This document shows positions 14,071-62,477 of a stretch of DNA of 64,000 nucleotides, one piece after another. The notes under the pieces were generated by a model that saw nothing but the letters and a program-made list of their open reading frames with translations, ran no database searches and was not told the DNA's origin. Each line of letters begins with the position of its first letter. Position 1 is the stretch's first letter. The translations under genes were made by a program, and so were the position numbers. Origin of the DNA: Patescibacteria group bacterium (lineage in GTDB: Bacteria > Patescibacteriota > UBA1384 > XYA2-FULL-43-10 > 1-14-0-10-43-13). The stretch is from the NCBI GenBank assembly GCA_038078835.1, contig JBBTQI010000001.1:722-64721 (forward strand), read 5' to 3'.

Positions 14071-16326
14071 TTACTTGCTGTCTTGCTTACTTGCCTGCTC
14101 CTCGGAGCCTTGGCGCAGTGGGGCTGTCTTGCTGACAAAAACGATGTCGGCAATCGCATTTTCCCCGGCGACATTGATGATTTTGATCTCGTCGTCCGCT
14201 TTAATATCGATATCGCCCAGCTTGCGCCAAACAAACTTTTCCACTCCAACATCCTTGTCAACTTGGAACTTGTCACCCTTCGGGTGATCGCCCGCAGGGC
14301 GAAAAACTGAAAACTGGAAACTTCCTGACGAGCCTCCGACAAGGTGGCGAATCCAGAGCTCATAGGAGCCGCTCTCAGTCGCTTTTCCTGACAGAACGCT
14401 CTCCGGCTTGTCGGTGTAGATAAAATCCTGCCGCAGTTGGGTAAAGAGGTGTTTGCGCCAGAAATCATACCGTCCCCGACTCCAACCATCTTCATAGTAG
14501 GCAAACCCCCTTGCCCACTCCGTTATCGGCAATTGTTTAATTGCCTTATTGCCCCACTGTCCCCTTGCCGAATTGCCAATTTTGGTTATTCGATCATTGG
14601 AATTTATTTGGGATTTGTTGTTTGGATTTTGGAATTTGAAAATATGGATATTTTCCCCGAACCTCTTTGTTTCCACCAATCCCTCCTTTGATCTCACCAA
14701 TGCCAGAAGATCGGTCTGATTCCACTTTTTGACGATAACCGGATCGGTCTCTCGCCAAAGATTGGAGGCTTGAGCAAAGCGGCTCTCCGTATCCAGACGA
14801 AGAATGACGCAATCAACGCCGCCCTCTGCCAGCAGAGAGGCAAATTCGCCCTGATCATGCTTTTCGTAAAATTGCGACACTAATTCATTGCGATAGAACC
14901 GCTCGGCCGTCGGCAAAAAAGAGAAGGTCGCGCCATCGTCAAGGCGCGGCACACCCAGCGCCAGAGCCAAGAGATCGGAGTTGGCCGCATCGCGAAATTC
15001 GGCCCGCTCATCTTTAAAGTAGACAAAGCCCAGTCCCGGCGGATAATAGGCCTTTTGACACACACCGCTATCAGCCAGATAATTTTTCAGTTCCCGATAC
15101 TCCGCCGGCACTTTGGTGAGCGGCAGGTAACCGGCATAGTCAAACGTTAAATAGGGCGCGATGATAAATAAGGCGCTGCCGGCAAGCAAGGTCTTAAGGC
15201 CGGAGGCTAAAGGCCGGAGGCTAAAGGCCGATAAGCAAGCGAAAAGATAATCCAAGCCAAAGGCAAAGAGAATAATGGCGGCGGCCGCGACAATGAATTG
15301 GAGATGATAGATCTCGCGGAAAATACCCAGCGCCGGTATCCGCTCAAACAGCGCGACAAAGATTGGCCCCAACGGTCCGCTCGGACCCTTGGGAAAGGGG
15401 GCAACCGATATTAACGTCAATATGCTGGTCAGCGCCAATTCGCGGCGGGGACGATTCCCGAGGCCGAAAAGAGCCGCCAACCAGAAGACAGCCAAACCAA
15501 AAAGATAGCGGGGATCATGCGAGAGGGCGTAAAAGAAATTATGGGTAATCTGGTGATCGGAGAAGTTCAGAAAATTCCCGGCGCTGTGGGGCATCATTCG
15601 CATATACTCCAGCGTTGTGACGGCCACTGCCCTAATCTGCTCCGCACCCTGATCATAGCTCAAAGACAAGACGAACCAGGGCAGAAGAAAGAGGACAAGA
15701 GCCGACCAAGAGAAGATCAAATTAAAGAAACGCTCTCGTCGTCGCCCGGCGGCAACGAGAAGGTTAATCATCAAAAAGAGGGTCAGAAGCAGGCCCGCCT
15801 GGACTTGGGCAAAAACAAGCGAATAAAGAAAACCCAAACCAAGATAGTGCCGCCAGTTTTTTTTCTTGATATTAAAATAAAGGTGGAGAAAAAAGGGCAA
15901 GGCGGCGAAGGCCAAAAGCGACCAGCGGAAACCAACAATTGTTCGGACAAAAAGATAAGGATTAAAGGCGTAAACCAGAGCCGAAATCGTGGCAGCGAGC
16001 CGGTTTACGCCTTGCGACTTAGCGAAAAGAAAAAACCCGGCGGCGGCCAGAGCGTGAAGAAGAATAAGAAAGAGAGCGAAACTGAACTCCGGTCGAAATA
16101 GACCCAGCGGGGCCAGAAGAATCAAGCCGTTTTTGCTGGCAAAGTCAAAGGGATTGCCGGCCCGAAAATCGCCAAACTCCCGCCAAAGATTTCTCATATC
16201 CAGAAGCGGCCAATCCCAATCATAACGAAGGGGCAGGCCGTCTGATCGCAAATGCGATAAAACCAAAACAGCAAGCATCAATAAAGATACCGCAATCACT
16301 TGTTTTGATTTGATTATGTTAAACAT
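14071..16326 (-). CDS. Large GT-C fold membrane protein (YfhO/ArnT-like) with C-terminal extracytoplasmic domain
   Basis: 751 aa with an about 12-TM N-terminal region and a soluble C-terminal domain. Carries in-frame repeat insertions at 14581-14645 and 15193-15236. Confidence 0.55.
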   Translation of the reverse strand: MFNIIKSKQVIAVSLLMLAVLVLSHLRSDGLPLRYDWDWPLLDMRNLWREFGDFRAGNPFDFASKNGLILLAPLGLFRPEFSFALFLILLHALAAAGFFLFAKSQGVNRLAATISALVYAFNPYLFVRTIVGFRWSLLAFAALPFFLHLYFNIKKKNWRHYLGLGFLYSLVFAQVQAGLLLTLFLMINLLVAAGRRRERFFNLIFSWSALVLFLLPWFVLSLSYDQGAEQIRAVAVTTLEYMRMMPHSAGNFLNFSDHQITHNFFYALSHDPRYLFGLAVFWLAALFGLGNRPRRELALTSILTLISVAPFPKGPSGPLGPIFVALFERIPALGIFREIYHLQFIVAAAAIILFAFGLDYLFACLSAFSLRPLASGLKTLLAGSALFIIAPYLTFDYAGYLPLTKVPAEYRELKNYLADSGVCQKAYYPPGLGFVYFKDERAEFRDAANSDLLALALGVPRLDDGATFSFLPTAERFYRNELVSQFYEKHDQGEFASLLAEGGVDCVILRLDTESRFAQASNLWRETDPVIVKKWNQTDLLALVRSKEGLVETKRFGENIHIFKFQNPNNKSQINSNDRITKIGNSARGQWGNKAIKQLPITEWARGFAYYEDGWSRGRYDFWRKHLFTQLRQDFIYTDKPESVLSGKATESGSYELWIRHLVGGSSGSFQFSVFRPAGDHPKGDKFQVDKDVGVEKFVWRKLGDIDIKADDEIKIINVAGENAIADIVFVSKTAPLRQGSEEQASKQDSK
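14581..14645. repeat. CAAAT-family element copy inside CDS (in-frame, encodes FKFQNPNNKSQINSNDRITKIG)
   Basis: ttggaatttatttgggatttgttgtttggattttggaatttg. Same orientation relative to the coding strand as the other intragenic copies. Confidence 0.55.
15193..15236. repeat. GGCC-type 13-mer tandem repeat (AAGGCCGGAGGCT x about 2.7) inside CDS
   Basis: cttaaggccggaggctaaaggccggaggctaaaggccg. In-frame, encodes ...SAFSLRPLASGLK.... Related copies at 1-45 and 57326-57390. Confidence 0.6.
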
Positions 16327-16694
16327 TAATCGCTCGGGGCGGCGCCGGACCTGCCGTCTTTTTCCCGTCGCAGCTCAACCAATGCCATTACTACAGCCAG
16401 GATCAAAAAATAATAGGTATAAATGGCAAACTTCTCGGCATAATCTTCTTTGCCCATTATCAACAAAACCGGCACCAAACAAAGGAAATACAGCGCGACT
16501 TTGGCGTATCGGGAGCTTGACCAAGGATTCAATATCGCCCAAATAATAAAAGCCAGGCCGGCGATATTATCTATCGACCAATTAAAATCAATACCAATTA
16601 AAATACCGATTGTGACAAACAAAAGATCAAGGTACGGCTTTGGCAGATACCGGCGATATAACTGAATTAACTTTTGCTTGATTTCCGGCAGCAT
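16326..16694 (-). CDS. Small (122 aa) 3-4 TM membrane protein, paralog of 20889..21272
   Basis: LNPWSSSRYAKVALYFLCL aligns with LNPIRSELLLKVALALMAL in the 127 aa paralog. Function unknown. Confidence 0.5.
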   Translation of the reverse strand: MLPEIKQKLIQLYRRYLPKPYLDLLFVTIGILIGIDFNWSIDNIAGLAFIIWAILNPWSSSRYAKVALYFLCLVPVLLIMGKEDYAEKFAIYTYYFLILAVVMALVELRREKDGRSGAAPSD

Positions 16695-16703
16695 CTCAAT
16701 TTT

Positions 16704-18293
16704 TTATCTCATGATCAAATCCCCTTCTAATCTCAAACTCGTCAGACCGCAAGAACCCGCCTTTGACTCCGGATAGCACTCGGCCTTTAAAAAGACAACC
16801 GACGCTTGACCATTAATCTTTATTTGTTCCTCGAACTTACCCGGAATCTCCTCTCCCTCATCGTCAAGCCTATGAGCCAGCACTCGCCAATCTTTATTGT
16901 CCAGAGAATAAAACAGTCTGACTTTCTCTTCTTTGCTTTGACTGCCATCTGCTTCAACTCTTAAGCGCTTAGCTGGATAGAGTGTGTTGACTCTAATCCG
17001 ATACGACTTGCCCTTTTTAACGCCCACTATGCCGTTTTGGCGGTTAAAGGTGTAAAACACATCGTTACTATCACGATCTTCCGGTATTATACTTAAAAAG
17101 TCGGCATAATTTCCCTGCGTTTGGTAAAAATATCTTCCTTCTCCTTGGCCAAAATCTTCAACTCTGGCTCCGTTTAATAATTCGGGGTCGCCCGATTGGC
17201 GGCGAAGGAGATGCAACTTAAAGTAAAAATCACCCAGCTCCTCCCCGCTTCCGTCAGCCAAGCGCTTTGCCCCCTGGCCGTCGGCATAATCTCCGCCCCT
17301 CCTTGAACCATGAATAGACAAATAGCTCCAAGGAGTCACCTTGGCATTAGCGGCATCAATACCGATAAAATAATACTTGTCCCGCTCCAGATTATAGCTC
17401 AAAGGTAAACGATACACCCCGCTCCCGTTCTCCTCTTCGTAGTACTTGAGGCTCTTTAAATTAAAGAAGTACTGGGTGAGAACCTTCGGCTTCATTATAA
17501 AACGGCCATCAACATACTCCGCCTCGTTTAATTGCAAAACATAATTGTCCTCGCTTTGGCCGCGATAGGATAGTTTCAGGCTAATGCCAGTCAGTATCCC
17601 ATCGCTCACCTTAAAGGTCTGGCCGGCGACCCGGCGGCTACGCCAGAAGCGGTAAAGGGAAGCAAGATTCTTGGGCTCGACCGGAGCGATTAACTCGTAA
17701 TTGTAAAGATTGTTTTCCAGATACGGCTTCAATTTTTCGGCTTCCTCCAGCGAGGATGTCTCCAGTTTGACGAGGTGAAAATTTCTTAAAAATACCCTGT
17801 TGTCATCATAATTTTCTGCTCGCCTAATCATGATATTTTGATAGTTATCATCGGTTTGGAAGTAGAGTTCATGCCGGCTGTAAAACGGCTGATTCTTGCC
17901 GACTATCTCGCCAATCTTTTGCTGGCCATTAAACTTTGAGTCGGTCAGTATCTCCAAAGGAGAATCATCCAGCTCCTCGGGTGAGAAAATCTCGGCATAA
18001 GACACTCTCTCAAAAAAATCTTCTGGGTACAACATTCCGTTTGGACGAACTTTTAAATCAAAGACTAATCGATATGTTTCCCCGGCGCCACTACCAATAA
18101 CGTTAATGAATTTATAATCATTTTTTGCGCTATCAAGAACAAGGTTTCCGTCCCCGAATAACTGTTTCGACGAGGCGATATTGACTTTGGGACGATCATA
18201 AAAAACAACCGTTGACAACAAGATAGCGATCACTAATAAATAGCGGCCGTTTCCTTTTATCGCTTTTACAACAAAATCATATCTGCTCTTCAT
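16704..18293 (-). CDS. Signal-anchored secreted protein (529 aa), paralog of 21279..22874, function unknown
   Basis: N-terminal TM/signal anchor then a Y/N/D/G-rich beta-type extracytoplasmic domain. Shares the motif RLVFDLKVRP versus RLLFDLEAVP with its paralog. Confidence 0.5.
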   Translation of the reverse strand: MKSRYDFVVKAIKGNGRYLLVIAILLSTVVFYDRPKVNIASSKQLFGDGNLVLDSAKNDYKFINVIGSGAGETYRLVFDLKVRPNGMLYPEDFFERVSYAEIFSPEELDDSPLEILTDSKFNGQQKIGEIVGKNQPFYSRHELYFQTDDNYQNIMIRRAENYDDNRVFLRNFHLVKLETSSLEEAEKLKPYLENNLYNYELIAPVEPKNLASLYRFWRSRRVAGQTFKVSDGILTGISLKLSYRGQSEDNYVLQLNEAEYVDGRFIMKPKVLTQYFFNLKSLKYYEEENGSGVYRLPLSYNLERDKYYFIGIDAANAKVTPWSYLSIHGSRRGGDYADGQGAKRLADGSGEELGDFYFKLHLLRRQSGDPELLNGARVEDFGQGEGRYFYQTQGNYADFLSIIPEDRDSNDVFYTFNRQNGIVGVKKGKSYRIRVNTLYPAKRLRVEADGSQSKEEKVRLFYSLDNKDWRVLAHRLDDEGEEIPGKFEEQIKINGQASVVFLKAECYPESKAGSCGLTSLRLEGDLIMR

Positions 18294-20892
18294 CTCTCTG
18301 TCCTCGCCTTACCAGTAGGTACCGCAAACTTGCCAACATGGCTAACGCTGATATAATCAATCCCAGATAGAATAATCTCTGTGGCCAGAACTCAATAATT
18401 AATTCGAGGCTCTTGGTGCCATCGGGATTGGTTTGACAATGGCCGCTCTCTTGGCAAAACCTTTCTGCATTGACAATCCATGCATTAGCGTAACCGTTTA
18501 CTTTAAGATGGGTTTGAGCATCGCCAAGAGGAGCCTTAAACCAGGTTTCGGCAACTCCACCATTACCTAGATTATCATTTTGAATGGTTCCTTGGAAGTT
18601 TTTGGACACAAAGTCAATCTTGTTCCGATCGCCTAAAGTTGACACCAAACCTCGATTAACATAATCAGCCAGCTCCTCCCGAGTTGCCCCATCCGCCTCA
18701 TTCCCCCCTGGAATTTGATAAGAATTCAGCAGGTCAGCAGGTAAGCTAGTAAGCGAGTCAGCTGTCTTGCTATCTTGCTGTCTTGCTATCTTGCTTATAT
18801 AAATCTTCCACCCCCTATGGTACGCCTCATTAAAAACCAGCAGGAAGTCTTCCCTGGCCTGATGTGCAACAACGCGATATTTGACCGGGGAGATTTTCTT
18901 GAATTCAATTGCCGGAGGATTAACCGTTTCTTCCGCCAAGCGCGCCATGGATTCGGCTTTATTCGGATTGTCGCCGCCAAAGACTACTGCCGATGCCGTC
19001 TCCTTCGGCCAAATATCCAGAATTTTGGCCGGCACTTCATTTGATTTGACGATTTTTCGAGGAACGTAAATATGCGGGAGGAAAGATTGGCCGTTCAGGC
19101 GGTAGAGAAAAAAGTCGCCCCAGATTTGTACTAAAGAGAAGCGTTCACTTCTGAGCATGCTTGCGATCATCTCTCTGTTAATCTTGTTTTTATAGACTTC
19201 CTCATTGACATTATCCCGACGGAAAATAACATAACGCGTATTCAAAATCGCCAAATAGCGATCGATCTCTTCGGAGAAATTCTGAAATTCATTCTCGTAC
19301 CGACGATAAAGATCGGCTAATAGTGGTGACGATTGCGGATTAAGACCGATGCTGTTACCGTACTGGTTCAAAATTAAATAGGGGGCGGGACCGAGTAAAT
19401 TCCAGAGCGGGTCAACACCGACGCTTGACCAGCGGTAAATCGTCCAGGAGCCGGAGGGAGAGCCGGCATTATCGGGCAAAATCAGGTTGCGTTGGTCAAG
19501 GCGAATCCGCTTAACTCGCTCTGCCCCTGCATAATAATCCACCGGAATAGAGTAGTAGCGTTTAAGAAATTTATTGGGGATCACCTCGTTCCGGGGAATG
19601 ATGCCATTAATAAAGAAGGGGTAGGCGTTAATGGCAATCGCTCCCAATGTTAGAGCCAGAGCCAGCCAGCCCAACTTCCTCCGATAAGCAAATACTGCTG
19701 ATAGAGCGAGCGCCAAGAAAATCGACAGGACAAGAATGAGAATCGGATAGAATTTTTCCATCGAGAAACGGAAGATCCGAAAGGGCGTGTTGTCAATCAG
19801 CCAGGCAAAGGGAGCAGCCAGAGGATCATGAATGCCCTTAATAAGAAAGATTAAAACTAGCGCTGTTACCGCCCACACAAAGTATCTCTTCAAGTACTTG
19901 CCCTTTTCCCAGAGAAAAAAAGTCCAGGGCAACAAAGCCAAAAAGTATCCGGCCAGGATTATAAGCGGTTTGGTAAAGTAATATTTCCCGAAGAGATAAT
20001 AATTGGGATCACGTGTCGCCCAGAATCCTTGAAGGCGCAAAACCTCAAAAAAGGAAGTGAAGCGAAACTCATAATTCCGCAAGTTTCCATTGTCAACCCC
20101 GGCGCTCTGGCCCATAAACTTGCTCGATTCAAAAAAAGAGAGTGGGCGCAGAATCCACCATAGGTTGGCTAGTAGGTAAATCAGGGTAAATTGGAGATAA
20201 GTCGTTTTATTCTGCCAAATATCCCGCCGGTAGATGATGCCTAAGGGAATTAAGATCATAAAGAAGGCCAAAAAGTAAGCCGGATTCTCAAAAGCCGGGA
20301 CAGCTAAGATGTTTACAAAAATAAAATATAGAAAATAACGTGACTTAACCCTTTTCTCCTTCGCTTCAAATATCCTGATCAGATAATAAATAAGCAAGGG
20401 GGCGATGCTGTATATGAACATGGCGATCAGGAAACCGTGTCCCCAGCGATAGTTATAGAGAAAGGGATTAAGGGAGTAAAACAGGGCACCAACTAAACTG
20501 ATCAAGTTCAGTGCCGGCTGTTTCGCTAAGTTCTTTCTGACAAAATGCCGCACCAGAACAAATGCCGAGAGGCCCGAAAAAAAGAACCAGATTAAAAAAA
20601 GCATCTTCTCGGTGAGAGAGATATTGCGGGTGAAAAAGTGAATCAAGACAAGCAATGAGGTATAAATAAGCGAAGCAGCGTTCCGGTCTTGGGAAACACC
20701 CAGACCGCGAGTGTGATCCCAGCGATACCAGAGTTTCTCCGTGTCAGTGATCGGCTCAAGCATAAAGGAGAAATCGGCCACGTTGATAATGTTATTACCG
20801 TGAAACCAGAAAAAGACCTGACTGGCCAGAACGGCCAAAAGCAGGACATAAAACCAATCTCGGCTGAGAATTTTCTTGAACTTATCGATCAT
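18277..20892 (-). CDS. Large GT-C fold membrane glycosyltransferase-like protein (871 aa) with C-terminal beta domain and terminal TM anchor
   Basis: About 13 TM helices then a soluble domain. The C-terminus ...NGYANAWIVNAERF...LELIIEFWPQRLFYLGLIISALAML mirrors the YfhO-type C-terminus. Paralog of the 832 aa protein. Confidence 0.55.
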   Translation of the reverse strand: MIDKFKKILSRDWFYVLLLAVLASQVFFWFHGNNIINVADFSFMLEPITDTEKLWYRWDHTRGLGVSQDRNAASLIYTSLLVLIHFFTRNISLTEKMLFLIWFFFSGLSAFVLVRHFVRKNLAKQPALNLISLVGALFYSLNPFLYNYRWGHGFLIAMFIYSIAPLLIYYLIRIFEAKEKRVKSRYFLYFIFVNILAVPAFENPAYFLAFFMILIPLGIIYRRDIWQNKTTYLQFTLIYLLANLWWILRPLSFFESSKFMGQSAGVDNGNLRNYEFRFTSFFEVLRLQGFWATRDPNYYLFGKYYFTKPLIILAGYFLALLPWTFFLWEKGKYLKRYFVWAVTALVLIFLIKGIHDPLAAPFAWLIDNTPFRIFRFSMEKFYPILILVLSIFLALALSAVFAYRRKLGWLALALTLGAIAINAYPFFINGIIPRNEVIPNKFLKRYYSIPVDYYAGAERVKRIRLDQRNLILPDNAGSPSGSWTIYRWSSVGVDPLWNLLGPAPYLILNQYGNSIGLNPQSSPLLADLYRRYENEFQNFSEEIDRYLAILNTRYVIFRRDNVNEEVYKNKINREMIASMLRSERFSLVQIWGDFFLYRLNGQSFLPHIYVPRKIVKSNEVPAKILDIWPKETASAVVFGGDNPNKAESMARLAEETVNPPAIEFKKISPVKYRVVAHQAREDFLLVFNEAYHRGWKIYISKIARQQDSKTADSLTSLPADLLNSYQIPGGNEADGATREELADYVNRGLVSTLGDRNKIDFVSKNFQGTIQNDNLGNGGVAETWFKAPLGDAQTHLKVNGYANAWIVNAERFCQESGHCQTNPDGTKSLELIIEFWPQRLFYLGLIISALAMLASLRYLLVRRGQRDEEQI
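18721..18806. repeat. About 80-nt segment near-identical to 23296..23372, containing 8-mer tandem repeat (RTCTTGCT x4)
   Basis: gaatttgataagaattcagcaggtcagcaggtaagctagtaagcgagtcagctgtcttgctatcttgctgtcttgctatcttgct. Encodes QQDSKTADSLTSLPADLLNSYQI in-frame. Confidence 0.6.
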
Positions 20893-21272
20893 CTGCCTGG
20901 CTTCCGAGACTTTTTTAACTTAGGTGTCTCGTTTCTCATTTCGACCATCGCCGCGAGGGCCGCCAGAGTCAAGAAAAGAAACGCCCAATTTACTACCTCC
21001 TCGGCGCGTCCGCTCCGATTACCGATAAGTAACATTGGAGAGAGCGCCATTAACGCCAGGGCGACTTTTAACAACAGCTCGCTCCGGATTGGATTTAAGA
21101 TTAACCAGGACACCAAGACAAAAGCAGCAATTGTAGTCAACTCCCAATTGAGATAAGCGCCAAGCAGGAAAACGAACCCCAGTAGAGCCAAATCGATATT
21201 GCGCTTGGAAAAAATCTTCTGCCGATCAGATTTGATTATAAAGTCGTCAATTTTTATCTTCAGGTGTGCCAT
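20889..21272 (-). CDS. Small (127 aa) membrane protein, paralog of 16326..16694
   Basis: 3-4 TM helices. Sits between the GT-C gene and the 531 aa secreted protein, as its paralog does. Confidence 0.5.
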   Translation of the reverse strand: MAHLKIKIDDFIIKSDRQKIFSKRNIDLALLGFVFLLGAYLNWELTTIAAFVLVSWLILNPIRSELLLKVALALMALSPMLLIGNRSGRAEEVVNWAFLFLTLAALAAMVEMRNETPKLKKSRKPGR

Positions 21273-21278
21273 AGGATA

Positions 21279-22874
21279 TTATTTGATAACCAACTCGGCT
21301 TCGGCGGTCAGCTCCTTCAAGCCAAAGAGCGGGATCTTCTGCTCCATTGTGTCGGCGGGATCATAAGTAACTTTAAGGTAGAGTGTTCTAGTCGCGCCAT
21401 CTCCGGTGATCATCTCAGAGAAAATCTGTTGAGAGGCGTCCGCGCTGTCCTTTTTGACTGTGATCGCCTGCCAGTTTTGGCCGTCGGCTGAATAAGAAAT
21501 AAGGCAGTTCGTGAACTGATTTGAAGTCGGTTTGGCCCTGATAGCAAAGCGTTTATAAGGGTAGAGGGTGTTAAATTTGTAGGTGAAGTCGGCTTTATCG
21601 ATGATCCGGCCGGAGATGCCGCGCTGAACGTTATCGTAAAAAACCAGATTATCGCTCGTTTGGCGGAAATCAGTCAAGTCGAGAAAATCACTAGAGCTGC
21701 CTGAGGTACGATAAGTGTAACGGCCCTCGCCGCCGCCCAGATCTTCGATAATGGCGCCGGTCAACACCGGCTCACCCTGAGTTTGGATAAAGTCAGCGCC
21801 GTAAGCTTTGAAATAAATATCGCCCGAGGCTTTCTTCGGCTTGTTGCGGACAAAGACCTTGGCCTCGCCCGGAGAGTAATTATCCGCCCTCGACCCCTTG
21901 AGGCTTAGGATGTTCAAGTAATTAAAATTGGCTGCTTCATTACTAATGCCGATATAATAAAGTTTGCCCGCCTCGAGCCGGGCGGCCAGCGGAAAGCGAT
22001 AAATGCCCCGATTCGGATCGATCAATAACCGGTTGGCCTGCTCTTTGTTGAAATAATAGTATGCTTTGCGGTCGCGGCTGAAATCAACCTCCCCGCGATC
22101 GTTCGCTTCGCGCAGTTCAAGAAAATAATTTCCGCCGCCGCCGCTACCAGAGAACTTTAGCGCCAGATCAACTTGAGAAATGATATCGGCTTCGGCCCGA
22201 AGGGTCTGGCCGATCCTCTGACCCTTGCGCCAAAATCGATACTCTTTATTAAGATCAACCGAACCCGCTCCGGCAATGACGCCGTTGAAATCGGATTGAC
22301 CAACGATCGTCGGCTTCAAGCCGGCAAGAGAACTGCCATCAAGGCGGAGAGGATAAGAGCGCAGATTAGAGATACGGAGCCGTCCGGGAAAATCAAGGTT
22401 GCCTTTACCGAGTTTTAGCTTCGTTGCTCCAAATCTTGAAACAAAAGTCGTCTCAGTAATCATTTTCCCCTGATTCAGTCCAACCTGCGTCCAACCAAGT
22501 ACCTGCTCCTCACCAAAATCAGAGAGTAGGGACGCTGTCATCTCAACGCGAGGCATCTCCGACGGCAGAGCTTTGCCGTCATACTCCGGAACCGCTTCAA
22601 GATCAAAGAGAAGACGATAAGCTTGGTCCGGTCTGACCGATATCTCCCGAGTGAGGGTTATCACCTCCACCGAAGAAGCAATGTCAAATGTTCCCCGCTC
22701 GGCGCTTTTGAGTTCCTCAATCTGGCGGACCATGATTTCCTCGCTCTGGCGGGGCGGATTAAAATCTTTGCCGAAAAGAAACGCCAGCCCCGATATTAAA
22801 AAGAAGAGCAAATAGCGTTTGTTCTCTCTAACTAAGCAATAAAGATTGCTAGACATTTGCAACTTTCTGACCAT
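21279..22874 (-). CDS. Signal-anchored secreted protein (531 aa), paralog of 16704..18293
   Basis: Same architecture and length as the 529 aa protein. Confidence 0.5.
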   Translation of the reverse strand: MVRKLQMSSNLYCLVRENKRYLLFFLISGLAFLFGKDFNPPRQSEEIMVRQIEELKSAERGTFDIASSVEVITLTREISVRPDQAYRLLFDLEAVPEYDGKALPSEMPRVEMTASLLSDFGEEQVLGWTQVGLNQGKMITETTFVSRFGATKLKLGKGNLDFPGRLRISNLRSYPLRLDGSSLAGLKPTIVGQSDFNGVIAGAGSVDLNKEYRFWRKGQRIGQTLRAEADIISQVDLALKFSGSGGGGNYFLELREANDRGEVDFSRDRKAYYYFNKEQANRLLIDPNRGIYRFPLAARLEAGKLYYIGISNEAANFNYLNILSLKGSRADNYSPGEAKVFVRNKPKKASGDIYFKAYGADFIQTQGEPVLTGAIIEDLGGGEGRYTYRTSGSSSDFLDLTDFRQTSDNLVFYDNVQRGISGRIIDKADFTYKFNTLYPYKRFAIRAKPTSNQFTNCLISYSADGQNWQAITVKKDSADASQQIFSEMITGDGATRTLYLKVTYDPADTMEQKIPLFGLKELTAEAELVIK

Positions 22875-25347
22875 CCGATCTCACTCTGTCTCGCCGATAA
22901 TACCAAATTAGAAATCCCAAACAAGACAAAAAAGTAATTCCGCTTATAGCCAAGCCCAAATAAAAAACTCTCTGAAGCCAATATTCGATCACGATCTCCA
23001 TTTCGTAACCGCCATCTGAATTTAGCGCACAACCGCCGTTTTGGCAAGCCGCCGCCGGGTCAATTACCCAGGCGTTGGCGAAACCGTTGGCCGTAAGATG
23101 CGGCGTCTCAAAGGAAGGCTTAAAATACGTCTCGTAAAATGGCCCCCCCCCTAGATTATCATTCTGTATTGTACCCCGATTCTCCCGGGAGATAAACTTA
23201 ATCGTGCCCTTCTCCCCCAACGTCGTCACCAAATCTTTGGCAATGTAATCTTTAAGCTCATCTCTACTCGCCTGTTCCCCCTCATTTCCCTTCAGAATTT
23301 GATAAGAATTCAGCAGATCAGCAGGTAAGCTAGTAAGCAAGTCATCTGTCTTGCTGTCTTGCTGTCTTGCTAATTTATAGATTTTCCACTTCTCGTCAAA
23401 GCTTTCATTGAGCACAAGGCTAAAAGGTTTGCGGACGCTACTGATCTTCAGTCGGTATTTAACCGGCGAGATTTTTTTGTATTCAATCCGCGGTGCTTGC
23501 TTCCCGTCAATTTGACTTACCAGTTGATCGATTCCCCTAGGGTTTTGGCTGCGTAAAAAGACGGCTGGCGAAGTATTTTTATTAATATCGCCGCCAAAGC
23601 CTTGCAAAGCAGCTATCTCCCCGTTGATAATCCGGGCGTCGCCGGTCGCATATAAATGCGGCCGGGTATTTTTCAGGCGATAGATGACCGTTTGCCCCTC
23701 GGCAAACACCTGCTCCAGCCGACCGCCTAAAACCTCCTTCTCGAGCGCTTGCCACATTTGCCGGCGGCCATCGTTATTAAGATCGTAATTTGAGATATTT
23801 TTTCGCAAAACGATATATCTAACCCCTGTCGGCCATAAGGCGTCCGCAATATTGCCCTCGACGGTTGACTTCTTTAACATATCCAGAAAGTCAGTCGGGC
23901 CAAGGTGGCGATCGGTGGCGGTTAATAAGCCGGGAATGGGAGAGTAGATGGCAAAGATATCGCGAATGCCGCGGGAATATTTCGGGTCATCGTCAACAAC
24001 CATACCACTATAGGAATAGGGCAAATAAAGCACCTTGATATCAGCCTCTTGCCGCGCCATAAACTCCTCGGCCCGATACGCCTCAGGCGGGAAGATCTTG
24101 GTTGTCAGGCGACTGTCGTTGCCGGCGCGATGCTCCCAGGCCGCGAGCTCCCCCGACCACCAAGGGACAAGATAGGTAATCCAAATAGTAAAAAGAAGGA
24201 TGATCGCTATTCTATATTTGCGGTACGAAAGCCAAAAATGATCTACCGCCAGGGCAATCAGAACAGAGAAAGCAAAAACCGATAGCACGCTAAAACGGGC
24301 CAAATCCCGTATCACATTTGAGAAGGGAATATTGAGGAGCACTTCCCGATGCAAGCTAAGATAATACATCTCCAGAGGCACCAGGGCTACAAGCCAGAGT
24401 GAGACAATCAGCCTTCTTCTCTCTTTAATAAAAAGGGTTGGCAGCACTAACAGGGGCACTAAAAATGACAGGAGTGAAAGACCATAGTTGTTAATGATTG
24501 TTTCGTACTGCATATTGTAGAGCGAGCCCCAAAGACGAATTATATTAAGAGGATAAAAATTAAGCGTTGTTCCCCGACTTGTAGTAGCAAAGACATATTC
24601 CGAGCCGGCCACTCCCTCATCCGAGAAAAAAATCTGTTGCAAAAGAGTCGGAGACAATAGGAGAAGGGCAATTATATTGACACTTAAAAGGACCTTTATT
24701 ATTCTGCCGGGACTACCGGCCGTCTTGTAACGGTAGTATGTAAACGCTAACAGAATAATATTGAGCCAAACAAGCGATTGGGGCTGCAGAAAAGAAATTG
24801 CTATCAAAAAAGAAGTGATGACAACCGCCCGGTTGTTTCCGTTAGCCACAGCCTCAATAAAGTACTTTGCCGCCAGCGGTGCAATACCCAAGAACAAGAT
24901 AGCGTAAAACCAGCCGATGATCGCGTAGTTAAACATCACCGGAGTTGTGACATAAAATACCGCCATCAGAGCAGCAACCGGATAGCCAAACTTCAAGTAC
25001 CTGAGAAAGTTAAAGAAAGAATATCCGGCTAGGGCAAACAGGGTGAGAATTAATAATTTTATATGAACCTCGCCGCCCAGCCCGATCAAAGACATGGCGT
25101 TGTTAACAAGTTGCCTCGATAGATCAAATCCAACGGTTTGATTGCGAAACGCGACAATACTGTTAAAGTCCCAAGCGTAAAATGCCATCTGCAGGGATTT
25201 GTATGTCTGAATTTTAGTTAAGGGAAAAGCAATATCTTCACCGATAATAAATCCGGGGAGAGCAACAACGCGGAAGAGAAGCGCAACTGATATCGCGGCA
25301 AAAAAGATGAGGGGTAACAATATTTTTACTTTAGGGAAAATCTTCAT
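22849..25347 (-). CDS. Large GT-C fold membrane glycosyltransferase-like protein (832 aa), paralog of 18277..20892
   Basis: C-terminal region ARQQDSKTDDLLTSLPADLLNSYQI...NGFANAWVIDPAAAC...EIVIEYWLQRVFYLGLAISGITFL is collinear with the 871 aa protein. Confidence 0.55.
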   Translation of the reverse strand: MKIFPKVKILLPLIFFAAISVALLFRVVALPGFIIGEDIAFPLTKIQTYKSLQMAFYAWDFNSIVAFRNQTVGFDLSRQLVNNAMSLIGLGGEVHIKLLILTLFALAGYSFFNFLRYLKFGYPVAALMAVFYVTTPVMFNYAIIGWFYAILFLGIAPLAAKYFIEAVANGNNRAVVITSFLIAISFLQPQSLVWLNIILLAFTYYRYKTAGSPGRIIKVLLSVNIIALLLLSPTLLQQIFFSDEGVAGSEYVFATTSRGTTLNFYPLNIIRLWGSLYNMQYETIINNYGLSLLSFLVPLLVLPTLFIKERRRLIVSLWLVALVPLEMYYLSLHREVLLNIPFSNVIRDLARFSVLSVFAFSVLIALAVDHFWLSYRKYRIAIILLFTIWITYLVPWWSGELAAWEHRAGNDSRLTTKIFPPEAYRAEEFMARQEADIKVLYLPYSYSGMVVDDDPKYSRGIRDIFAIYSPIPGLLTATDRHLGPTDFLDMLKKSTVEGNIADALWPTGVRYIVLRKNISNYDLNNDGRRQMWQALEKEVLGGRLEQVFAEGQTVIYRLKNTRPHLYATGDARIINGEIAALQGFGGDINKNTSPAVFLRSQNPRGIDQLVSQIDGKQAPRIEYKKISPVKYRLKISSVRKPFSLVLNESFDEKWKIYKLARQQDSKTDDLLTSLPADLLNSYQILKGNEGEQASRDELKDYIAKDLVTTLGEKGTIKFISRENRGTIQNDNLGGGPFYETYFKPSFETPHLTANGFANAWVIDPAAACQNGGCALNSDGGYEMEIVIEYWLQRVFYLGLAISGITFLSCLGFLIWYYRRDRVRSDGQKVANV
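23296..23372. repeat. Second copy of the about 80-nt conserved segment / 8-mer repeat (GTCTTGCT x3)
   Basis: gaatttgataagaattcagcagatcagcaggtaagctagtaagcaagtcatctgtcttgctgtcttgctgtcttgct. Confidence 0.6.
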
Positions 25348-25361
25348 AAACTAAATCAAAT

Positions 25362-27662
25362 TTAATCGCCTCTCCCTTTGAATCTCCGAGAAAGGATGGC
25401 GGAGGCAAATGCCAATATAATCAAAGATAAAATTACTTGAAGATAAATATAAAACTGCGGCAGGAAAAATAAGACCACCTCCAAATCAAGCGAACCATCG
25501 GGATTTTCTTTATAATAATCGGTTGAAAATTTACCCCTTATATCGTCAGCAGTCAATATCCAGCCGTTCGCATACTCATCACTGAGAAAATGATCTGTCA
25601 GCCGATTCCTGTTCACGGCGTATTCCGCATCTCCCCACTCAAAAAAGGAGTCTTTTTTAACAACGCACTCCTTCGTTTTGGAGAGCGAATAATTAATTTC
25701 GCCGCCGCAAGAAAAATGATTTGATCCCGTTTTTTTAACAAAAGCCGACCATTGCGAATTAAACGATTGATTAAGCACAATCGCACCGTTGCCGCTCAAC
25801 CCGGTCAGTCTGATTTTGTATTTAACCGGGTTGACCCGCGCAAATTCAACATTTTGGACATTACCCTGAAAAGAAATTACCGGTCTTATATATTCAGGGG
25901 AAACTCGGTAGAGGTCAAAAAGGCCGTTCTCGTTTATTTTATCGACTACTTTCTGGTCTTCCAGCTTTTTCAAGGTTGAAGATACCACTTTTGAGCGCTC
26001 ACTAAACCTTTTATCAATGTCTCTGTGGAAGATCACGTATTCTCCGCTAAATTTTTGAATCAGATAAATAAGCCTGTCCGTGTCAACCCTTTTTTGTCGG
26101 TCAAAATTTTCAAAGGAGGATTCGCTGCCGGCATTCGGATGATCGAAAGTGTTAGCAGAAATATAGTTTTTATCAAAGAGGAGGTGCAAGATGTCTTGGC
26201 CGACAAAACCCCATTTGGGGTAATTCGCCCAATTGATGGAATTAACAACCGAGAAGGGCAACGAAATAACAGATGTGCTCTTACTGCCATTGTTTACTGT
26301 GCCCCTAATAGACTCGTATTCCGCCGGGATTTTTTGAACATAACTGTAATCGCTCCCCTTATTTGACAACATACCGACTATTTTGCCCGTATAGAAAGGG
26401 TGGGGAATGAGCAAGAGCAAGAGAAAAATTATCCGAATAGGCCACTTTCTTATTCTAAGCTCGAGAATTAGGCCCAATAAAACCATTAAATAGACGAAGG
26501 GGATAAAACTAAATAATTTCTCCGGGGATCTGAAAAAACTAAAGAGGGGCAGAAGGTAAAAAGATAAATTCATCTCCTTTACCGGACCGTATGCCCGAAC
26601 CGAAAGAGTGATTAATAGGAGAAAGATTAATATGAAAACAATGGTTAGGTTATGGTTGCTTGTTCCGGTCAACCTTTCTTTGCGGTTACGATAATTCGCG
26701 GCGGCATATTTAACCATCAACCCGACCAGAATGATCATATACGAAGCGGACAAGATCACAGATGAGCCAAGAGTGGCCATCGGGAAGCGATATTTATCAA
26801 CGGCGAAGAAAAAAGAATTGACAAAATCACTGCTTGTTGCCGTAATCCACCCCTCCAGGTCAGAAATAACGGCTGAGGTGGCAATCCCGCCCAGAGAAAC
26901 GGTGGACGCGATCGAAGAAAAATAGAAACCCGCAGCCGCCGGCAAGAGTACTACAAAATAAATGGCGGCTATTTTGCTGATCTTCCGGCACAGCTCAATG
27001 TTAATTCTAACCTTTTCCTTACAAAAAATCAGTAACAATGACAACATTAAAAAATAGATCGGCAACAGTGCCCCCAGGAAAGCCAGATTATTAAAAGCGA
27101 GAAGCGACAACAGCAAAACCAACGAAAAAAGAGCATAATTAGAACCTCTCTCTGGAGCAAGAATAATCTTTAAAGGCAGGGCAACCAATGGGGGGATAAA
27201 TATATAGAAAAGAAAGTGATGAGTAAATCCCCAAGGGTAGGTAAATATCGTGAGAGTGAAATTATTAAGAGCGTAAACTAAACCACCCCAGATTGTAATT
27301 TCTTTAGAGATTTTAGATAAAATAAGATTGACAGAAAAATAAAAACTTAAAAAGGAGCCGTACAGAAGAAAGAAAAGATAAAAACTGCCTATGACACCCG
27401 AACTCGCACCAAAGTAATCCAGAACGGCCAATAAAGAATAAAATGGTGCGTCCACCCACATATTGTTGTATGCCCCCTGACCGATTTGATTTATCCAGGC
27501 GTAAAAATAGCGGCCAAAGTGTTCGGCTGGATCAATCAGCTGGTAGAAGTCTCCCCCGGCGATGAAACGGTCCGGCGGAACAGCATTAATCCAAAATGCA
27601 ATAATAATAAAAAAAAGGAAGAACCCTATGTGTAAGACAATGCTCTTATTTCGCTTGTGCAT
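25362..27662 (-). CDS. Large GT-C-like polytopic membrane protein (766 aa) with C-terminal extracytoplasmic domain and terminal TM
   Basis: About 14 TM helices, a soluble C-terminal domain (NQSFNSQWSAFV...ANGWILTAD) and a final TM (LQVILSLIILAFASAIL). Same overall plan as the other GT-C proteins. Confidence 0.5.
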   Translation of the reverse strand: MHKRNKSIVLHIGFFLFFIIIAFWINAVPPDRFIAGGDFYQLIDPAEHFGRYFYAWINQIGQGAYNNMWVDAPFYSLLAVLDYFGASSGVIGSFYLFFLLYGSFLSFYFSVNLILSKISKEITIWGGLVYALNNFTLTIFTYPWGFTHHFLFYIFIPPLVALPLKIILAPERGSNYALFSLVLLLSLLAFNNLAFLGALLPIYFLMLSLLLIFCKEKVRINIELCRKISKIAAIYFVVLLPAAAGFYFSSIASTVSLGGIATSAVISDLEGWITATSSDFVNSFFFAVDKYRFPMATLGSSVILSASYMIILVGLMVKYAAANYRNRKERLTGTSNHNLTIVFILIFLLLITLSVRAYGPVKEMNLSFYLLPLFSFFRSPEKLFSFIPFVYLMVLLGLILELRIRKWPIRIIFLLLLLIPHPFYTGKIVGMLSNKGSDYSYVQKIPAEYESIRGTVNNGSKSTSVISLPFSVVNSINWANYPKWGFVGQDILHLLFDKNYISANTFDHPNAGSESSFENFDRQKRVDTDRLIYLIQKFSGEYVIFHRDIDKRFSERSKVVSSTLKKLEDQKVVDKINENGLFDLYRVSPEYIRPVISFQGNVQNVEFARVNPVKYKIRLTGLSGNGAIVLNQSFNSQWSAFVKKTGSNHFSCGGEINYSLSKTKECVVKKDSFFEWGDAEYAVNRNRLTDHFLSDEYANGWILTADDIRGKFSTDYYKENPDGSLDLEVVLFFLPQFYIYLQVILSLIILAFASAILSRRFKGRGD

Positions 27663-28255: not shown

Positions 28256-30580
28256 TTATTTATTTCGAGCAAATAGATATACCCCGATAAGAATCGAGGC
28301 GAGAGATAAGACGCCCCCAACTAGCAAATAGGGCTGCTTATATTGCAGTGTGATCTCGTGCTCTCCCCGATTAAGACAAAATCCCATAAGACCGCCGTCT
28401 ATTTTGTAAACATCGGCTTTTTCTCCATCAATCTCAACCTTCCACCCCTTGTCATAAGGAAGGGATAAGAACATCATACCAGGAATATCGGCGCTCAGTC
28501 TCCCCCTGAGTCGTGTCGGGCTCTGCTCGTAAAGTTCCACCCCGTTGGAACGTGCTTTTTTAAGCTCCCGATTAAAGTCAAAATTAGTTAAAAACTTATT
28601 GAGCTCCCCTTGGCCACTTTTTTTCAGACCGCAAACCGTCTCCCCTGCGTCCGAGACAAAATGGCCGAGGAGAGCGATGTCTTTTTGCGAATCGCTCAGA
28701 TTCTTAAAGGTTGGCGAATTGATAAAGCGATCGTAAACAAAGCCGGTTGGCAAAATATTATTATTGCGATAGAGATAAAGATCACCAAAAGATCCTATCA
28801 GTTCATGGCCATCATATGTTGCGGTTGGCAGTTTGCTTAAAAAGTATTTAACGCCCAACAGGTTTCTGACAAGATTCCTGTTGCCAAAACCGGCGAACGC
28901 CCGGTAAGCAAAACTGCCGTCAATCATATTCAAGCTCCTCAAAAAATCAACATAGGATCTCTGGACGAGAGATTGATAAAAATCCGTGCCTTTGTATGCC
29001 TGAATAAGAGAATCGTTGCAGCAAAAAACCGATTTGTAATCCTTGTCAACCCGGTAAAAGCTCGGATCGGCATTTTTAATGTAGTCGATCGCCTCGTTGG
29101 AATAGTCGTTGTACCCCGCCTTTTCCTTGAGCGTGAGCGGAGTAAGCGTCTCGCGGAAATTCACCACGCCAAAAGAAAAGAATATCAATTCGGTCACAAA
29201 AGCAAACAGGAGCAAACCCCTAACCATCCGCTTTTTCTCGCCGTGAAGCAAGAGAAGCAAAATCAGATAAATCAGTAAAAAGATATCAGCGGCAGCCAGC
29301 ATTCTGACGTTAATGATTGATCTCTCGGGTGCAAGAAGGTAGAGAAGGATCGGGATAAGCGAGAGAAAGAGAAAGGTCATCGTCAAAACTCTTTTATTCA
29401 GTACATCAGTCTTAAGAATCCTATCCAGGACAATGACGGCGGCAAAGATCAAAATAAAATCTACGAAGAAGGAGTTTAATTTGTAGTAATCGGCCGAAAA
29501 ACCGATTGTTGCCGACCGGAAAAGAGGAACAAAAAGATAGAGAAGAACGAAAACGAAGAGGGGGAGAAACGGCAAGATTTTTTTCCTGTTGGCCGCGGTC
29601 AATAATTGCGACAGCAGCAACAGCGGCAACACTCCGATGTAGAGACCGGGACCCTCAAAATAATTTGACCAGCCTCTATAATTATTGATCCCGCCCAAAG
29701 CGTCATTTGAGAAAAAACGAAGAAATTGCGTGTAAAACTCTTGGAAGCCAATAAAAAATCTGAAATCCAGCAGGATGGAGGATTCAGCAAATCGCAAACT
29801 GCTCAAAAGAGTTACGAGGTTGGGTAAAAAAATGATAAATCCCCCCCCCACACCCAAAGTGCAGTAAAAAAGTAATCTGAGGTGAAAAGCGCAAAACTCT
29901 CTCAGAATCAAATGTTGCGTCGCCCCAAAACGATAAATGGAATAAACTATCAGGAGAAGAAAGTAAGCAAATACCAGAAACGGACTATAACCAGCCAACC
30001 AAAGAAAAGCCAGGGAAAGATACAACCGTTTTTTTCTCTGCAGGAAAACCTCATAAGCCATAAGGAGCAAGGGGAAGAAGGCCATCTCGGTACCATAATA
30101 ATACCAGCCAGAGCGGATGATCATCGGACCGGAGAAGACATAGGCCAGTGCTCCAACTAGGGCTGCAAATCCGGAAATTCTAATATAATTCTTCAGGTAA
30201 AGATAAAAGAAAATTCCGGCCAGAAATATTTTTAGGACTATGACATAAGATAACAGGTAAACTAAAGAGTCGGGGCGAAAAAGGAAGAGAAGCAGGTTAA
30301 AGGGATCGAACGGGCTGCCTCCGTACAGTGCACCGGAAAAAATGTTTGAACCCAATCCGACACTGTGTGACCAGAGAGGAAAGTGACCAGCTCTGACCAA
30401 ACCGGAAAAGTATTCCAAATTCGGCCAAAGCTGGAGCCAAACATCCTTTCCGGCGTCGGTATAGATAAACACCCTCTTTAATGTCAAGAAGTCCCAAAAA
30501 AGAATGACGAGAGCGGCCAAGATAATCACCGCCGCTAAAACAAACGGCCGACCTCTCAATTTTTTCCAAAATATGATCAT
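28256..30580 (-). CDS. YfhO-family GT-C membrane glycosyltransferase
   Basis: 774 aa polytopic protein. C-terminus YDKGWKVEIDGEKADVYKIDGGLMGFCLNRGEHEITLQYKQPYLLVGGVLSLASIL matches the characteristic YfhO C-terminal pattern. Confidence 0.65.
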   Translation of the reverse strand: MIIFWKKLRGRPFVLAAVIILAALVILFWDFLTLKRVFIYTDAGKDVWLQLWPNLEYFSGLVRAGHFPLWSHSVGLGSNIFSGALYGGSPFDPFNLLLFLFRPDSLVYLLSYVIVLKIFLAGIFFYLYLKNYIRISGFAALVGALAYVFSGPMIIRSGWYYYGTEMAFFPLLLMAYEVFLQRKKRLYLSLAFLWLAGYSPFLVFAYFLLLIVYSIYRFGATQHLILREFCAFHLRLLFYCTLGVGGGFIIFLPNLVTLLSSLRFAESSILLDFRFFIGFQEFYTQFLRFFSNDALGGINNYRGWSNYFEGPGLYIGVLPLLLLSQLLTAANRKKILPFLPLFVFVLLYLFVPLFRSATIGFSADYYKLNSFFVDFILIFAAVIVLDRILKTDVLNKRVLTMTFLFLSLIPILLYLLAPERSIINVRMLAAADIFLLIYLILLLLLHGEKKRMVRGLLLFAFVTELIFFSFGVVNFRETLTPLTLKEKAGYNDYSNEAIDYIKNADPSFYRVDKDYKSVFCCNDSLIQAYKGTDFYQSLVQRSYVDFLRSLNMIDGSFAYRAFAGFGNRNLVRNLLGVKYFLSKLPTATYDGHELIGSFGDLYLYRNNNILPTGFVYDRFINSPTFKNLSDSQKDIALLGHFVSDAGETVCGLKKSGQGELNKFLTNFDFNRELKKARSNGVELYEQSPTRLRGRLSADIPGMMFLSLPYDKGWKVEIDGEKADVYKIDGGLMGFCLNRGEHEITLQYKQPYLLVGGVLSLASILIGVYLFARNK

Positions 30581-42426: not shown

Positions 42427-42513
42427 TACTTTCCTTTTCTTAAAACCACATGGAAGCGCGTGGCAAATCTGCGATCCGGACAAAGGTCAATCAGATAGCC
42501 CAGTATGTTAGCG

Positions 42514-61863: not shown

Positions 61864-62325
61864 GTGGCGGAGAAAACGCAATCATTACTGGGACAGATGT
61901 TTAAGTATGCCCTGGTCGGCGGAGTCAGTACCACCATTGATATTGTTATTCTTCGCCTTCTGCACAACAATCTCGGCCTGGTTCTCTGGCTCTCTGTTGC
62001 TCTCGCCTTCCTCGCCGGCACGATTAACGGCTACTATATGAACTCGCGCTGGACATTCGGTTATAATACAAAGGGCAAGGAGGCGATCAAGTTCAGCCAG
62101 TTCGCCACCGTTTCGCTCATCGGCCTCGGCCTTACCGAGCTGATAGTCAATTTTTACGTCGCCAACATCAGTCAGAGTCTCAGTGTTGCCGGCAGATTGA
62201 TATCAGCCTATATGGTCGGGAAACTCATTGCCGTCGCTATTGTCTTTTTCTGGAACTTTGGCGCCAACAAACTCTGGACCTTCCGCGAAAAACCTACCGG
62301 TATTGCCATCGATAAGCTAAACTAG
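61864..62325 (+). CDS. gtrA: GtrA-family membrane protein (lipid-linked sugar translocation helper)
   Basis: MFKYALVGGVSTTIDIVILRLL...NKLWTFREKP with 4 TM helices. AAGGAGG RBS then GTG at 61864. Confidence 0.75.
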   Translation: MAEKTQSLLGQMFKYALVGGVSTTIDIVILRLLHNNLGLVLWLSVALAFLAGTINGYYMNSRWTFGYNTKGKEAIKFSQFATVSLIGLGLTELIVNFYVANISQSLSVAGRLISAYMVGKLIAVAIVFFWNFGANKLWTFREKPTGIAIDKLN

Positions 62326-62374: not shown

Positions 62375-62464
62375 CTCCTGCAAAATTACAAATTCAACAA
62401 AATTACGAATCTTACAAATATTTGTAATATTTGTAGTTTCGGGAGATTTGCAATTTTGTAGGAG
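62375..62464. repeat. MITE-like element, same TIR family as 6030..6150 (CTCCTGCAAAATTACAAAT ... ATTTGCAATTTTGTAGGAG)
   Basis: TIRs match with 2 mismatches. The internal acaaattcaacaaaattacgaat is near-identical to the copy at 63694-63716. Confidence 0.65.
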
Positions 62465-62477
62465 ATTGGAGGTAGTG

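Follow-up and report, generated by a model that had tools for sequence, protein, structure and literature searches.

The 64,000-nucleotide (nt) stretch analysed here (the window), from contig JBBTQI010000001.1 of a Patescibacteria group bacterium, carries on its minus strand two successive sets of three genes, each coding for a large membrane protein, a protein of about 530 amino acids (aa) and a membrane protein of about 125 aa. The arrangement raises the question of what the large proteins are, and whether the two smaller proteins work together with them. The large, the ~530 aa and the ~125 aa proteins are designated G, P and S, respectively, followed by the length in aa: cassette A comprises G832, P531 and S127, cassette B comprises G871, P529 and S122. 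On balance, we incline to the view that the window contains four divergent genes of AftD-type GT-C glycosyltransferases, and that G832 and G871 each head a conserved G-P-S cassette working in the way proposed below.

Relationship of the large proteins to AftD

The large proteins were described as GT-C glycosyltransferases in the original prediction, and this assignment was supported by their profile matches to AftD. A profile built from 35 members of the G family matched a single family in the PDB, that of AftD (6W98/6WBX, E = 6.5e-18, profile positions 15-568), and 11 of the 35 members matched the Pfam model PF11847 (GT-C_AftD), the best with 5.3e-24. Compared with the family profile, the G proteins of the window gave E values between 9e-282 and 6e-32. 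G832 (4e-205) could be aligned with the G871 family from end to end, and G766, whose gene lies directly upstream of that of G832 and was absent from the original gene list, matched over its full length (9.6e-84) a profile built without it. With G751 (5.8e-32) the match comprised residues 5-567 only; this protein lacks the conserved C-terminal domain and the terminal transmembrane (TM) helix of the family, and gave a sub-threshold NCBIfam match to MmpA (30 bits, with a cut-off of 210).

In G871, about 11 TM helices (residues 1-430) are followed by a soluble GT-C domain, a beta-sandwich (approximately residues 660-835) and a C-terminal TM helix (836-870). The structure model, computed from an alignment of 10 sequences, is of moderate confidence. 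The succession of a multi-pass N-terminal membrane domain and an extracytoplasmic soluble domain, as in the GT-C fold, was found in G. An aspartate in the first outer loop (Asp40 in G871 numbering) was invariant in subfamily alignments of 7 and of 10 G871/G832-type sequences, and is present in G832 itself. In the hidden Markov model (HMM) alignment, which does not fix the exact residue equivalence, Asp40 is placed within two residues of K39 and D41 of AftD, both of which are essential (bioRxiv 10.1101/2019.12.22.885152). The invariant residues of G are mostly located in the C-terminal beta-sandwich (E663, K666, W695, S763, Q771, N772, N774, N803, W805 and N822), and because of this concentration the domain is a candidate site for docking or for acceptor binding.

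The original prediction had likened the set to systems with GtrC or YfhO. No G protein matched the YfhO model PF09586, and in an hhalign comparison with the YfhO of the window only 72 columns were aligned; mycobacterial AftD is the nearest relative instead. Taking into account the AftD match in the PDB, the PF11847 matches, the poor alignment with YfhO and the position of Asp40, G is, as judged by sequence comparison, a divergent GT-C enzyme of the AftD type.

A word-indexed search found relatives of G871 with 42-52% identity. The scan for G, when one genome was kept per species, yielded 52 loci, most of them in Patescibacteria (Moranii-, Falkow-, Doudna-, Berkel- and Roizmanbacteria, and Saccharibacteria) and a few in other groups (Nitrospinaceae, Elusimicrobia and Omnitrophus). 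Some relatives of G are 1320-1400 aa long, about 450-530 aa being inserted in their soluble part (L006:660-4862, L045:9548-13510 and L046:9620-13585). The insertion in the 1400 aa protein of locus L006 (P0006) consists of two repeated CBM_4_9-like modules, recognised by a faint Pfam match. These three long genes are followed by S, with no P gene.

Gene order in other genomes and history of the duplication

Co-occurrence of the triad in other genomes had been set beforehand as a check of the original prediction. HMMs of G, P and S were run over all open reading frames (ORFs) of the fetched loci, which contained 22 P genes in 19 non-redundant loci. G was located directly upstream of P in 21 of the 22 cases, at a distance of -58 to +112 nt, and P was followed directly by S in 16 cases, by a G766-like gene and then S in five, and by the contig end in one. 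The order G-P-S was found in the 19 non-redundant loci, which belong to several Patescibacteria lineages and share only 20-35% protein identity, and the same arrangement was seen in loci seeded from distant P members (G750-P511-S100 in L063, G750-P546-S119-G809 in L064). Since the triad co-occurs elsewhere, the prediction withstood this check.

The picture is wider if the loci are counted from G. Thirteen of the 52 loci contained G, P and S, 23 contained G and S without P, 15 contained G alone, and in one G and P stood at a contig end. S adjoins this GT-C clade in 36 of these species-representative loci and is its most constant companion. A second, shorter GT-C is usual: a G751-like protein after S, a G766-like protein located either between P and S or upstream of P, or a type of about 555 aa in loci devoid of P. 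Relatives of G766 (700-750 aa) separate P from S in L012, L016, L026 and L027 and precede P in L063; the orthologs of G751, located after S in L008 and L017, are 732 and 753 aa long (49% and 47% identity). The G proteins whose true length exceeds 1100 aa, five in number, are all encoded in loci without P, and three of them (L006, L045 and L046) have large internal insertions; the distributions of G and P are complementary in that the longest G proteins sit where P is absent. The triad, described as fixed in the original prediction, is therefore a recurrent arrangement, but not a strictly fixed one: S occurs without P in 23 of the 52 loci, and a shorter GT-C is often included.

In the window, all seven minus-strand ORFs of the original prediction were matched in every coordinate by the ORF list (Table 1), and gene calling, done independently on five assemblies of this organism, gave the same gene set. 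The locus is carried by the assemblies from ERR3858116, ERR3858118, ERR3858133, ERR3858135 and ERZ1292638. The junctions of the seven genes are overlaps of 26, 4, 17 and 1 nt and gaps of 6 and 9 nt, the stop codon of S127 overlapping the start of G871 by 4 nt. Because the junctions are so short, the genes form one tightly packed, probably translationally coupled transcription unit, and the members of the G-P-S cassettes are probably co-translated.

The proteins of the two cassettes had been regarded as pairs of paralogs, and for the smaller proteins blastp agreed (28% identity over 473 aa, E = 1.9e-38, for P529 and P531; 36% over 98 aa, E = 5.8e-13, for S122 and S127). The motifs quoted as shared, ARQQDSKT..LTSLPADLLNSYQI and ILNP..S....KVAL, were found in the proteins. 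G832 and G871 are collinear, as claimed, but are well conserved only over the C-terminal domain: blastp aligned their C-terminal 318 aa with 42% identity (E = 5.6e-67), and comparison by parts gave 46-47% identity for the C-terminal domain and about 21-24% for the membrane and catalytic part.

G832 and P531 of cassette A have orthologs in two other lineages, represented by L007 and L008 (G843, with 40% identity to G832, and P526 in the former; an ortholog of G832 and P524 in the latter), and G871 and P529 likewise have their own orthologs in both loci. These relationships indicate that G and P were duplicated as a block. The best relatives of S122 include the cassette-B S proteins of L007 and L008. 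The catalytic and middle parts of G fall cleanly into orthologs of type A and of type B, with identities of 58-61% and 42-51% within a type, and about 20% between the types. As the orthologs of each copy in the two other lineages are closer than the paralogs, the duplication predates these lineages. The tandem duplication inferred in the original prediction is thus real, but ancient, each copy having its own orthologs in L007 and L008.

The C-terminal beta-sandwich follows a different pattern. All six G proteins of the window, L007 and L008 share 34-55% identity in this domain, and two paralogs from one genome resemble each other no less than orthologs do (window 47%, L007 55%). Either a common constraint acts on the domain or gene conversion has homogenised it. 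The paralogs are mosaics, with C-terminal domains at 18277-18925 in G871 and 22849-23500 in G832, and the same pattern was found in L007; it suggests gene conversion or a shared ligand. At the DNA level, 185 nt at 18604-18788 and 23188-23372 are 76% identical, and this segment begins at an octanucleotide repeat.

Octanucleotide repeats are present in three of the G genes (Table 1). The octamer GCAAGACA occurs in seven copies in the window, all within G871, G832 and G751. With a period of 8, slippage would shift the reading frame. Phase variation through these repeats found no support so far: the copy number was identical in five other assemblies of the same organism. The encoded 'QQDSKT' segment is absent from the orthologs in L007 and L008.

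Partner proteins and their proposed roles

Pfam and NCBIfam scans left all seven of the originally listed proteins below threshold, P and S having no match at all, and G766 matched no Pfam or NCBIfam model either.

P is nevertheless a well-defined family, for which Pfam and NCBIfam have no model. An exhaustive HMMER search with a P529/P531 profile found 230 cluster representatives (at 50% identity), 115 of them below 1e-30 and nearly all 490-560 aa long; P531 matched the family profile with E = 4e-166. Word-indexed searches with a single sequence or with a 56-sequence profile returned the query alone, and the alignments contained no sufficiently conserved stretch of 7-10 residues. The AF2 model computed from the 56-member alignment (pLDDT 87.6, pTM 0.82) consists of an N-terminal helix (residues 3-31), oriented N-in because Lys/Arg residues precede it, and three beta-sandwich domains (approximately 50-178, 195-365 and 377-529) with a jelly-roll fold; the low-confidence segments are two short ones (34-48 and 91-102). 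Foldseek matches with low global TM-score included neuropilin b1b2 and reelin, which contain discoidin-type domains, and no PDB entry came close to the three-domain arrangement (TM-score 0.25 or lower). The discoidin-type Pfam model PF00754 (F5_F8_type_C) weakly matched 14 of the 56 members (best E = 3.9e-4, not convincingly above the gathering threshold), and the best PDB profile match, also weak (E = 0.014), was between the C-terminal domain and CBM32. Conserved residues are core aromatic, Gly and Asp positions.

Four short hydrophobic stretches run through S, whose conserved motifs are 'P..SR' and 'AE..AIYAYYFL'; S127 and S122 matched the family profile with E values of 2.8e-34 and 1.3e-40. 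A profile of 25 members found nothing credible in Pfam or the PDB; S is a second family without a Pfam or NCBIfam model. GtrA (PF04138) was considered as its identity and rejected, there being no credible Pfam match among the 25 members and an hhalign probability of 0.1 with the GtrA of the window. In other loci S modules occur in fusions: in frame with the N-terminus of a GT-C membrane domain (L038:16464-18152), at the end of a CBM_4_9-containing protein (L025:15770-17467), and together with LytR_C (L046:13585-14505, L021:12892-13923), TIG/IPT (L013:11758-12858, L039:11556-13154) or DUF4214 (L023:12664-13962). They point to a physical association.

Gene structure, homologies, predicted folds, synteny and fusions are direct observations, and the following mechanism is proposed to account for them. 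G would be the catalytic subunit and would work as other GT-C enzymes do, transferring a sugar from a polyprenyl-phosphate-linked donor, at the outer face of the membrane, onto a growing or finished surface glycan. P, held by its N-terminal anchor helix and exposing three domains resembling carbohydrate-binding modules (CBMs) or discoidin domains, would bind the acceptor polymer and offer it to G, and would in this way supply in trans what AftD, EmbC and the GT136 enzymes possess in cis as CBMs. S would most likely be a membrane subunit or adaptor of the enzyme, or an anchor for an extracellular glycan-binding part, its main alternative role being that of a flippase for the lipid-linked donor. 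The two cassettes probably differ in the sugar or linkage that they add to a shared polymer, as suggested by their ancient paralogy and very different catalytic domains (~20% identity).

Several observations weigh against this mechanism. The G proteins of the window individually fall below every Pfam threshold. As for P, its top structural matches are phage baseplate proteins, with TM-scores of at most 0.25; a likeness to CBMs is common to beta-sandwiches in general, and no residues for sugar binding were identified in P. In 15 of the 52 loci neither P nor S was found within 10 kb of G, and many G genes with the usual length of ~800-900 aa have no accompanying P, so that P is not generally required by this GT-C clade. 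The boundaries of the cassettes are ambiguous in a tandem array, and S could serve the GT-C encoded after it. No genes of a decaprenyl-phosphoarabinose pathway (UbiA or DprE type) were found among the genes of the 64-kb window. The G-P-S complex itself is something that we infer, as are glycan binding by P, the donor and the product. A more far-reaching version of the mechanism, which we regard as possible but rather doubtful, is that the three proteins make up an obligate heteromeric GT-C holoenzyme, in which G would need a dedicated triple-CBM subunit encoded by its own gene and a four-helix membrane subunit. It would be an 'unfused' functional equivalent of the 1400 aa AftD and a bacterial counterpart of eukaryotic GT-C machines of several subunits, such as oligosaccharyltransferase, and pairs of these enzymes, having in common a C-terminal docking domain that was homogenised, would build the surface glycan of the ultra-small Patescibacteria.

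Among the other explanations, the one that survives best, although we consider it unlikely, assumes a logic as in the Gtr systems: S would be a dedicated donor flippase for the neighbouring GT-C, a functional analog of GtrA, ArnE/ArnF or Rv3789, and P an accessory glycan-binding protein, with no stable complex between G and S. The GtrA and ArnE/F families are small flippases, and S, with ~100-140 aa and four hydrophobic segments, belongs to the same class of size and topology. One S per cassette, with 36% identity between the two, is what donor-specific flippases would look like, the association of S with this GT-C clade even in the absence of P fits the same idea, and the four GT2 proteins of the window that have C-terminal TM segments could make several lipid-linked donors. 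However, neither GtrA nor any other Pfam or PDB family is homologous to S, and a genuine GtrA and two Wzx/MATE-like flippases are already present in the window. The fusions of S in other lineages, with binding domains of extracellular type and with the membrane domain of a GT-C, favour a role as anchor or subunit over that of a transporter.

The original prediction had offered two roles for P, acceptor-binding subunit and glycosylation substrate. The first, which is part of the proposed mechanism, fits the three predicted CBM-like beta-sandwiches; the second, in which each GT-C would glycosylate its own surface protein in an O- or N-glycosylation of the PMT, PglB or AglB type, appears improbable. 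AftD, the closest relative of G, acts on polysaccharide. P is a compact three-domain beta-sandwich protein without any Ser/Thr/Pro-rich or repetitive acceptor tract, its only low-confidence segments being the two short ones, and its conserved residues are not sequons. Moreover, P is missing where the GT-C is a variant with a large insertion of its own, which suggests functional substitution and not the relation of an enzyme to its substrate. Since an acceptor tract was not found and the enzyme relatives act on glycans, the substrate role is disfavoured, and P, as modelled, fits a membrane-tethered glycan-binding protein better. Finally, that the genes belong to a crowded glycan locus independently of one another and are adjacent by chance, a notion to which the dense packing of diverse glycan genes and the 15 of 52 loci with G alone might lend some colour, is very improbable and already contradicted by synteny, as the G-P-S order is kept in 19 non-redundant loci at 20-35% identity and was obtained from distant P seeds as well, and as S-GT-C and CBM-S fusions exist.

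The surrounding locus and comparison with known systems

The 64 kb around the cassettes are a very large surface-polysaccharide locus of the Wzx/Wzy type. It contains three Wzy_C genes, two Wzx-type (MATE-like) flippases, many GT2 and GT4 genes, methyltransferases, rhamnose and UDP-sugar genes, a PIG-V-like GT-C, YfhO, GtrA and the four GT2s with C-terminal TM segments (37185-38222, 41476-42483, 48474-49490 and 51160-52185), which could be makers of lipid-linked donors. The context genes named in the original prediction were borne out: YfhO (28256..30580) matched PF09586 with 1.6e-68, GtrA (61864..62325) matched PF04138 with 1.9e-21, and the GT2 protein at 37185-38222 has two C-terminal TM segments.

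Table 1. Genes and octanucleotide repeats of the cassette region (positions in the window)
Feature	Position	Strand	Description
G766	25362..27662	-	Fourth AftD-like GT-C paralog; N-terminal multi-TM domain, soluble domain, C-terminal TM
G832	22849..25347	-	AftD-like GT-C glycosyltransferase; heads cassette A
P531	21279..22874	-	Signal-anchored; three beta-sandwich domains; cassette A
S127	20889..21272	-	Small four-TM membrane protein; cassette A
G871	18277..20892	-	AftD-like GT-C glycosyltransferase; heads cassette B
P529	16704..18293	-	Signal-anchored; three beta-sandwich (CBM/discoidin-like) domains; cassette B
S122	16326..16694	-	Small four-TM membrane protein; cassette B
G751	14071..16326	-	Divergent AftD-like GT-C after cassette B; without family C-terminal domain and terminal TM
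(GCAAGAYA) x4	18763..18794	-	Inside G871; encodes ...ARQQDSKT...
(GCAAGACA) x3, perfect	23347..23370	-	Inside G832, at the homologous position
GCAAGTAA GCAAGACA GCAAGTAA	14071..14094	-	3' end of G751; stop codon inside the repeat

The three Wzy_C (O-antigen ligase/polymerase-like) paralogs, of 411, 428 and 435 aa, are consecutive (864-4613, minus strand), and the same multiplicity adjoins the cassette in L063 and L064. A signal-anchored protein of 409 aa (4799-6028, plus strand) has a Dockerin_1 match of 1.4e-5, above the Pfam cut-off, and a cassette neighbour in another locus (L006:7878-9110) has a weak Cohesin match; these bacteria may use a surface assembly of the cohesin-dockerin type. A B12-binding radical SAM protein of 542 aa, encoded among glycosyltransferase and methyltransferase genes (49524-51152, minus strand), may be a C-methyltransferase or another unusual sugar-modifying enzyme. 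Three further ORFs had no Pfam match (33683-35254, 523 aa; 6157-7401, 414 aa; 54741-55121, 126 aa). Just after GtrA, at the edge of the glycan locus, a 217 aa ORF has an N-terminal Phd/YefM antitoxin domain (62448-63101, plus strand). The G+C content is ~0.50-0.53 at both ends of the window and 0.39-0.45 in the central 24 kb (24000-48000), a drop that suggests a mosaic or exchanged segment.

AftD, the closest known relative of G, has three CBMs that bind long arabinan acceptors and a four-helix bundle (TM13-16) that binds the acyl carrier protein (bioRxiv 10.1101/2019.12.22.885152). It is a mycobacterial (Actinobacteria) protein of about 1400 aa, whereas the G proteins of the window, from a Patescibacteria host, have 750-870 aa and lack both the three cis CBMs and the TM13-16 bundle; in G871 there is one beta-sandwich, and one TM helix at the C-terminus. 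In the cassettes it is two neighbouring genes of their own, P and S, that code for CBM-like domains and for a four-TM protein. When P and S were compared with the corresponding parts of AftD no homology was detected, and for this reason 'AftD in pieces' is an analogy only.

The mechanism proposed for the cassettes matches the general logic of the Gtr, CsbB/GtcA/YfhO and GT136 (pentofuranose) systems, in which the target of the GT-C is a surface glycan outside the membrane and its lipid-linked donor is made by a GT2; in these systems the donor is flipped by a small or a MATE-type transporter, and the CBM of GT136 binds the polysaccharide acceptor of the enzyme (PMC11127046). GtrA, GtrB-like GT2 proteins and YfhO are themselves encoded elsewhere in the window. 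The cassettes differ from the Gtr-type systems in that they include no GT2 synthase, S is not of the GtrA family and G is neither YfhO nor GtrC. The likeness to GtrA/GtrB/GtrC and CsbB/GtcA/YfhO that the original prediction had drawn therefore holds only as a loose logic. A separate multi-domain CBM-like protein is not part of the described Gtr, CsbB/GtcA/YfhO or GT136 systems; the CBM families with which P was compared (CBM4, CBM22, CBM29, CBM6/35/36 and CBM32 or F5/8 type C) have a beta-sandwich fold. The role proposed for P parallels that suggested for LpqZ and FecB, lipoprotein partners of the CBM-less arabinosyltransferases AftA and AftB (PMC12802301). The proteins are not homologous, however, LpqZ and FecB being lipoproteins with the fold of solute-binding proteins and P a type-II anchored triple beta-sandwich protein whose gene directly follows, and often overlaps, that of its GT-C.

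Full-text searches of PMC open access and bioRxiv papers, aimed at AftD and at GT-C enzymes or arabinofuranosyltransferases in Patescibacteria, also called the candidate phyla radiation (CPR), yielded no description of the triad, in agreement with the original prediction that it is not a described operon type, and none of AftD-like GT-C enzymes in Patescibacteria. What is known is the catalytic superfamily and the idea of assistance by CBMs; what is new is the conserved trans-encoded triple-beta-sandwich partner, the small four-TM partner and the ancient tandem duplication of these partners.

Patescibacteria are uncultured, ultra-small and mostly episymbiotic, their surfaces mediate attachment to the host, and the biochemistry of their envelope is almost unknown. 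The mycobacterial AftD and Emb enzymes are drug targets. The present analysis defines a CPR-centred clade of AftD-like GT-C proteins, largely missed by the current Pfam and NCBIfam models, and two families for which these databases have no model, P (about 230 clusters at 50% identity) and S, tied to the GT-C by gene order and fusions. In practical terms, it provides annotation rules and a three-protein complex amenable to testing. If P binds the acceptor in trans and S is a membrane subunit, the cassettes would represent a natural 'split' version of the AftD/Emb architecture, and would back the recent proposal that CBM-less GT-C enzymes recruit separate periplasmic partners.

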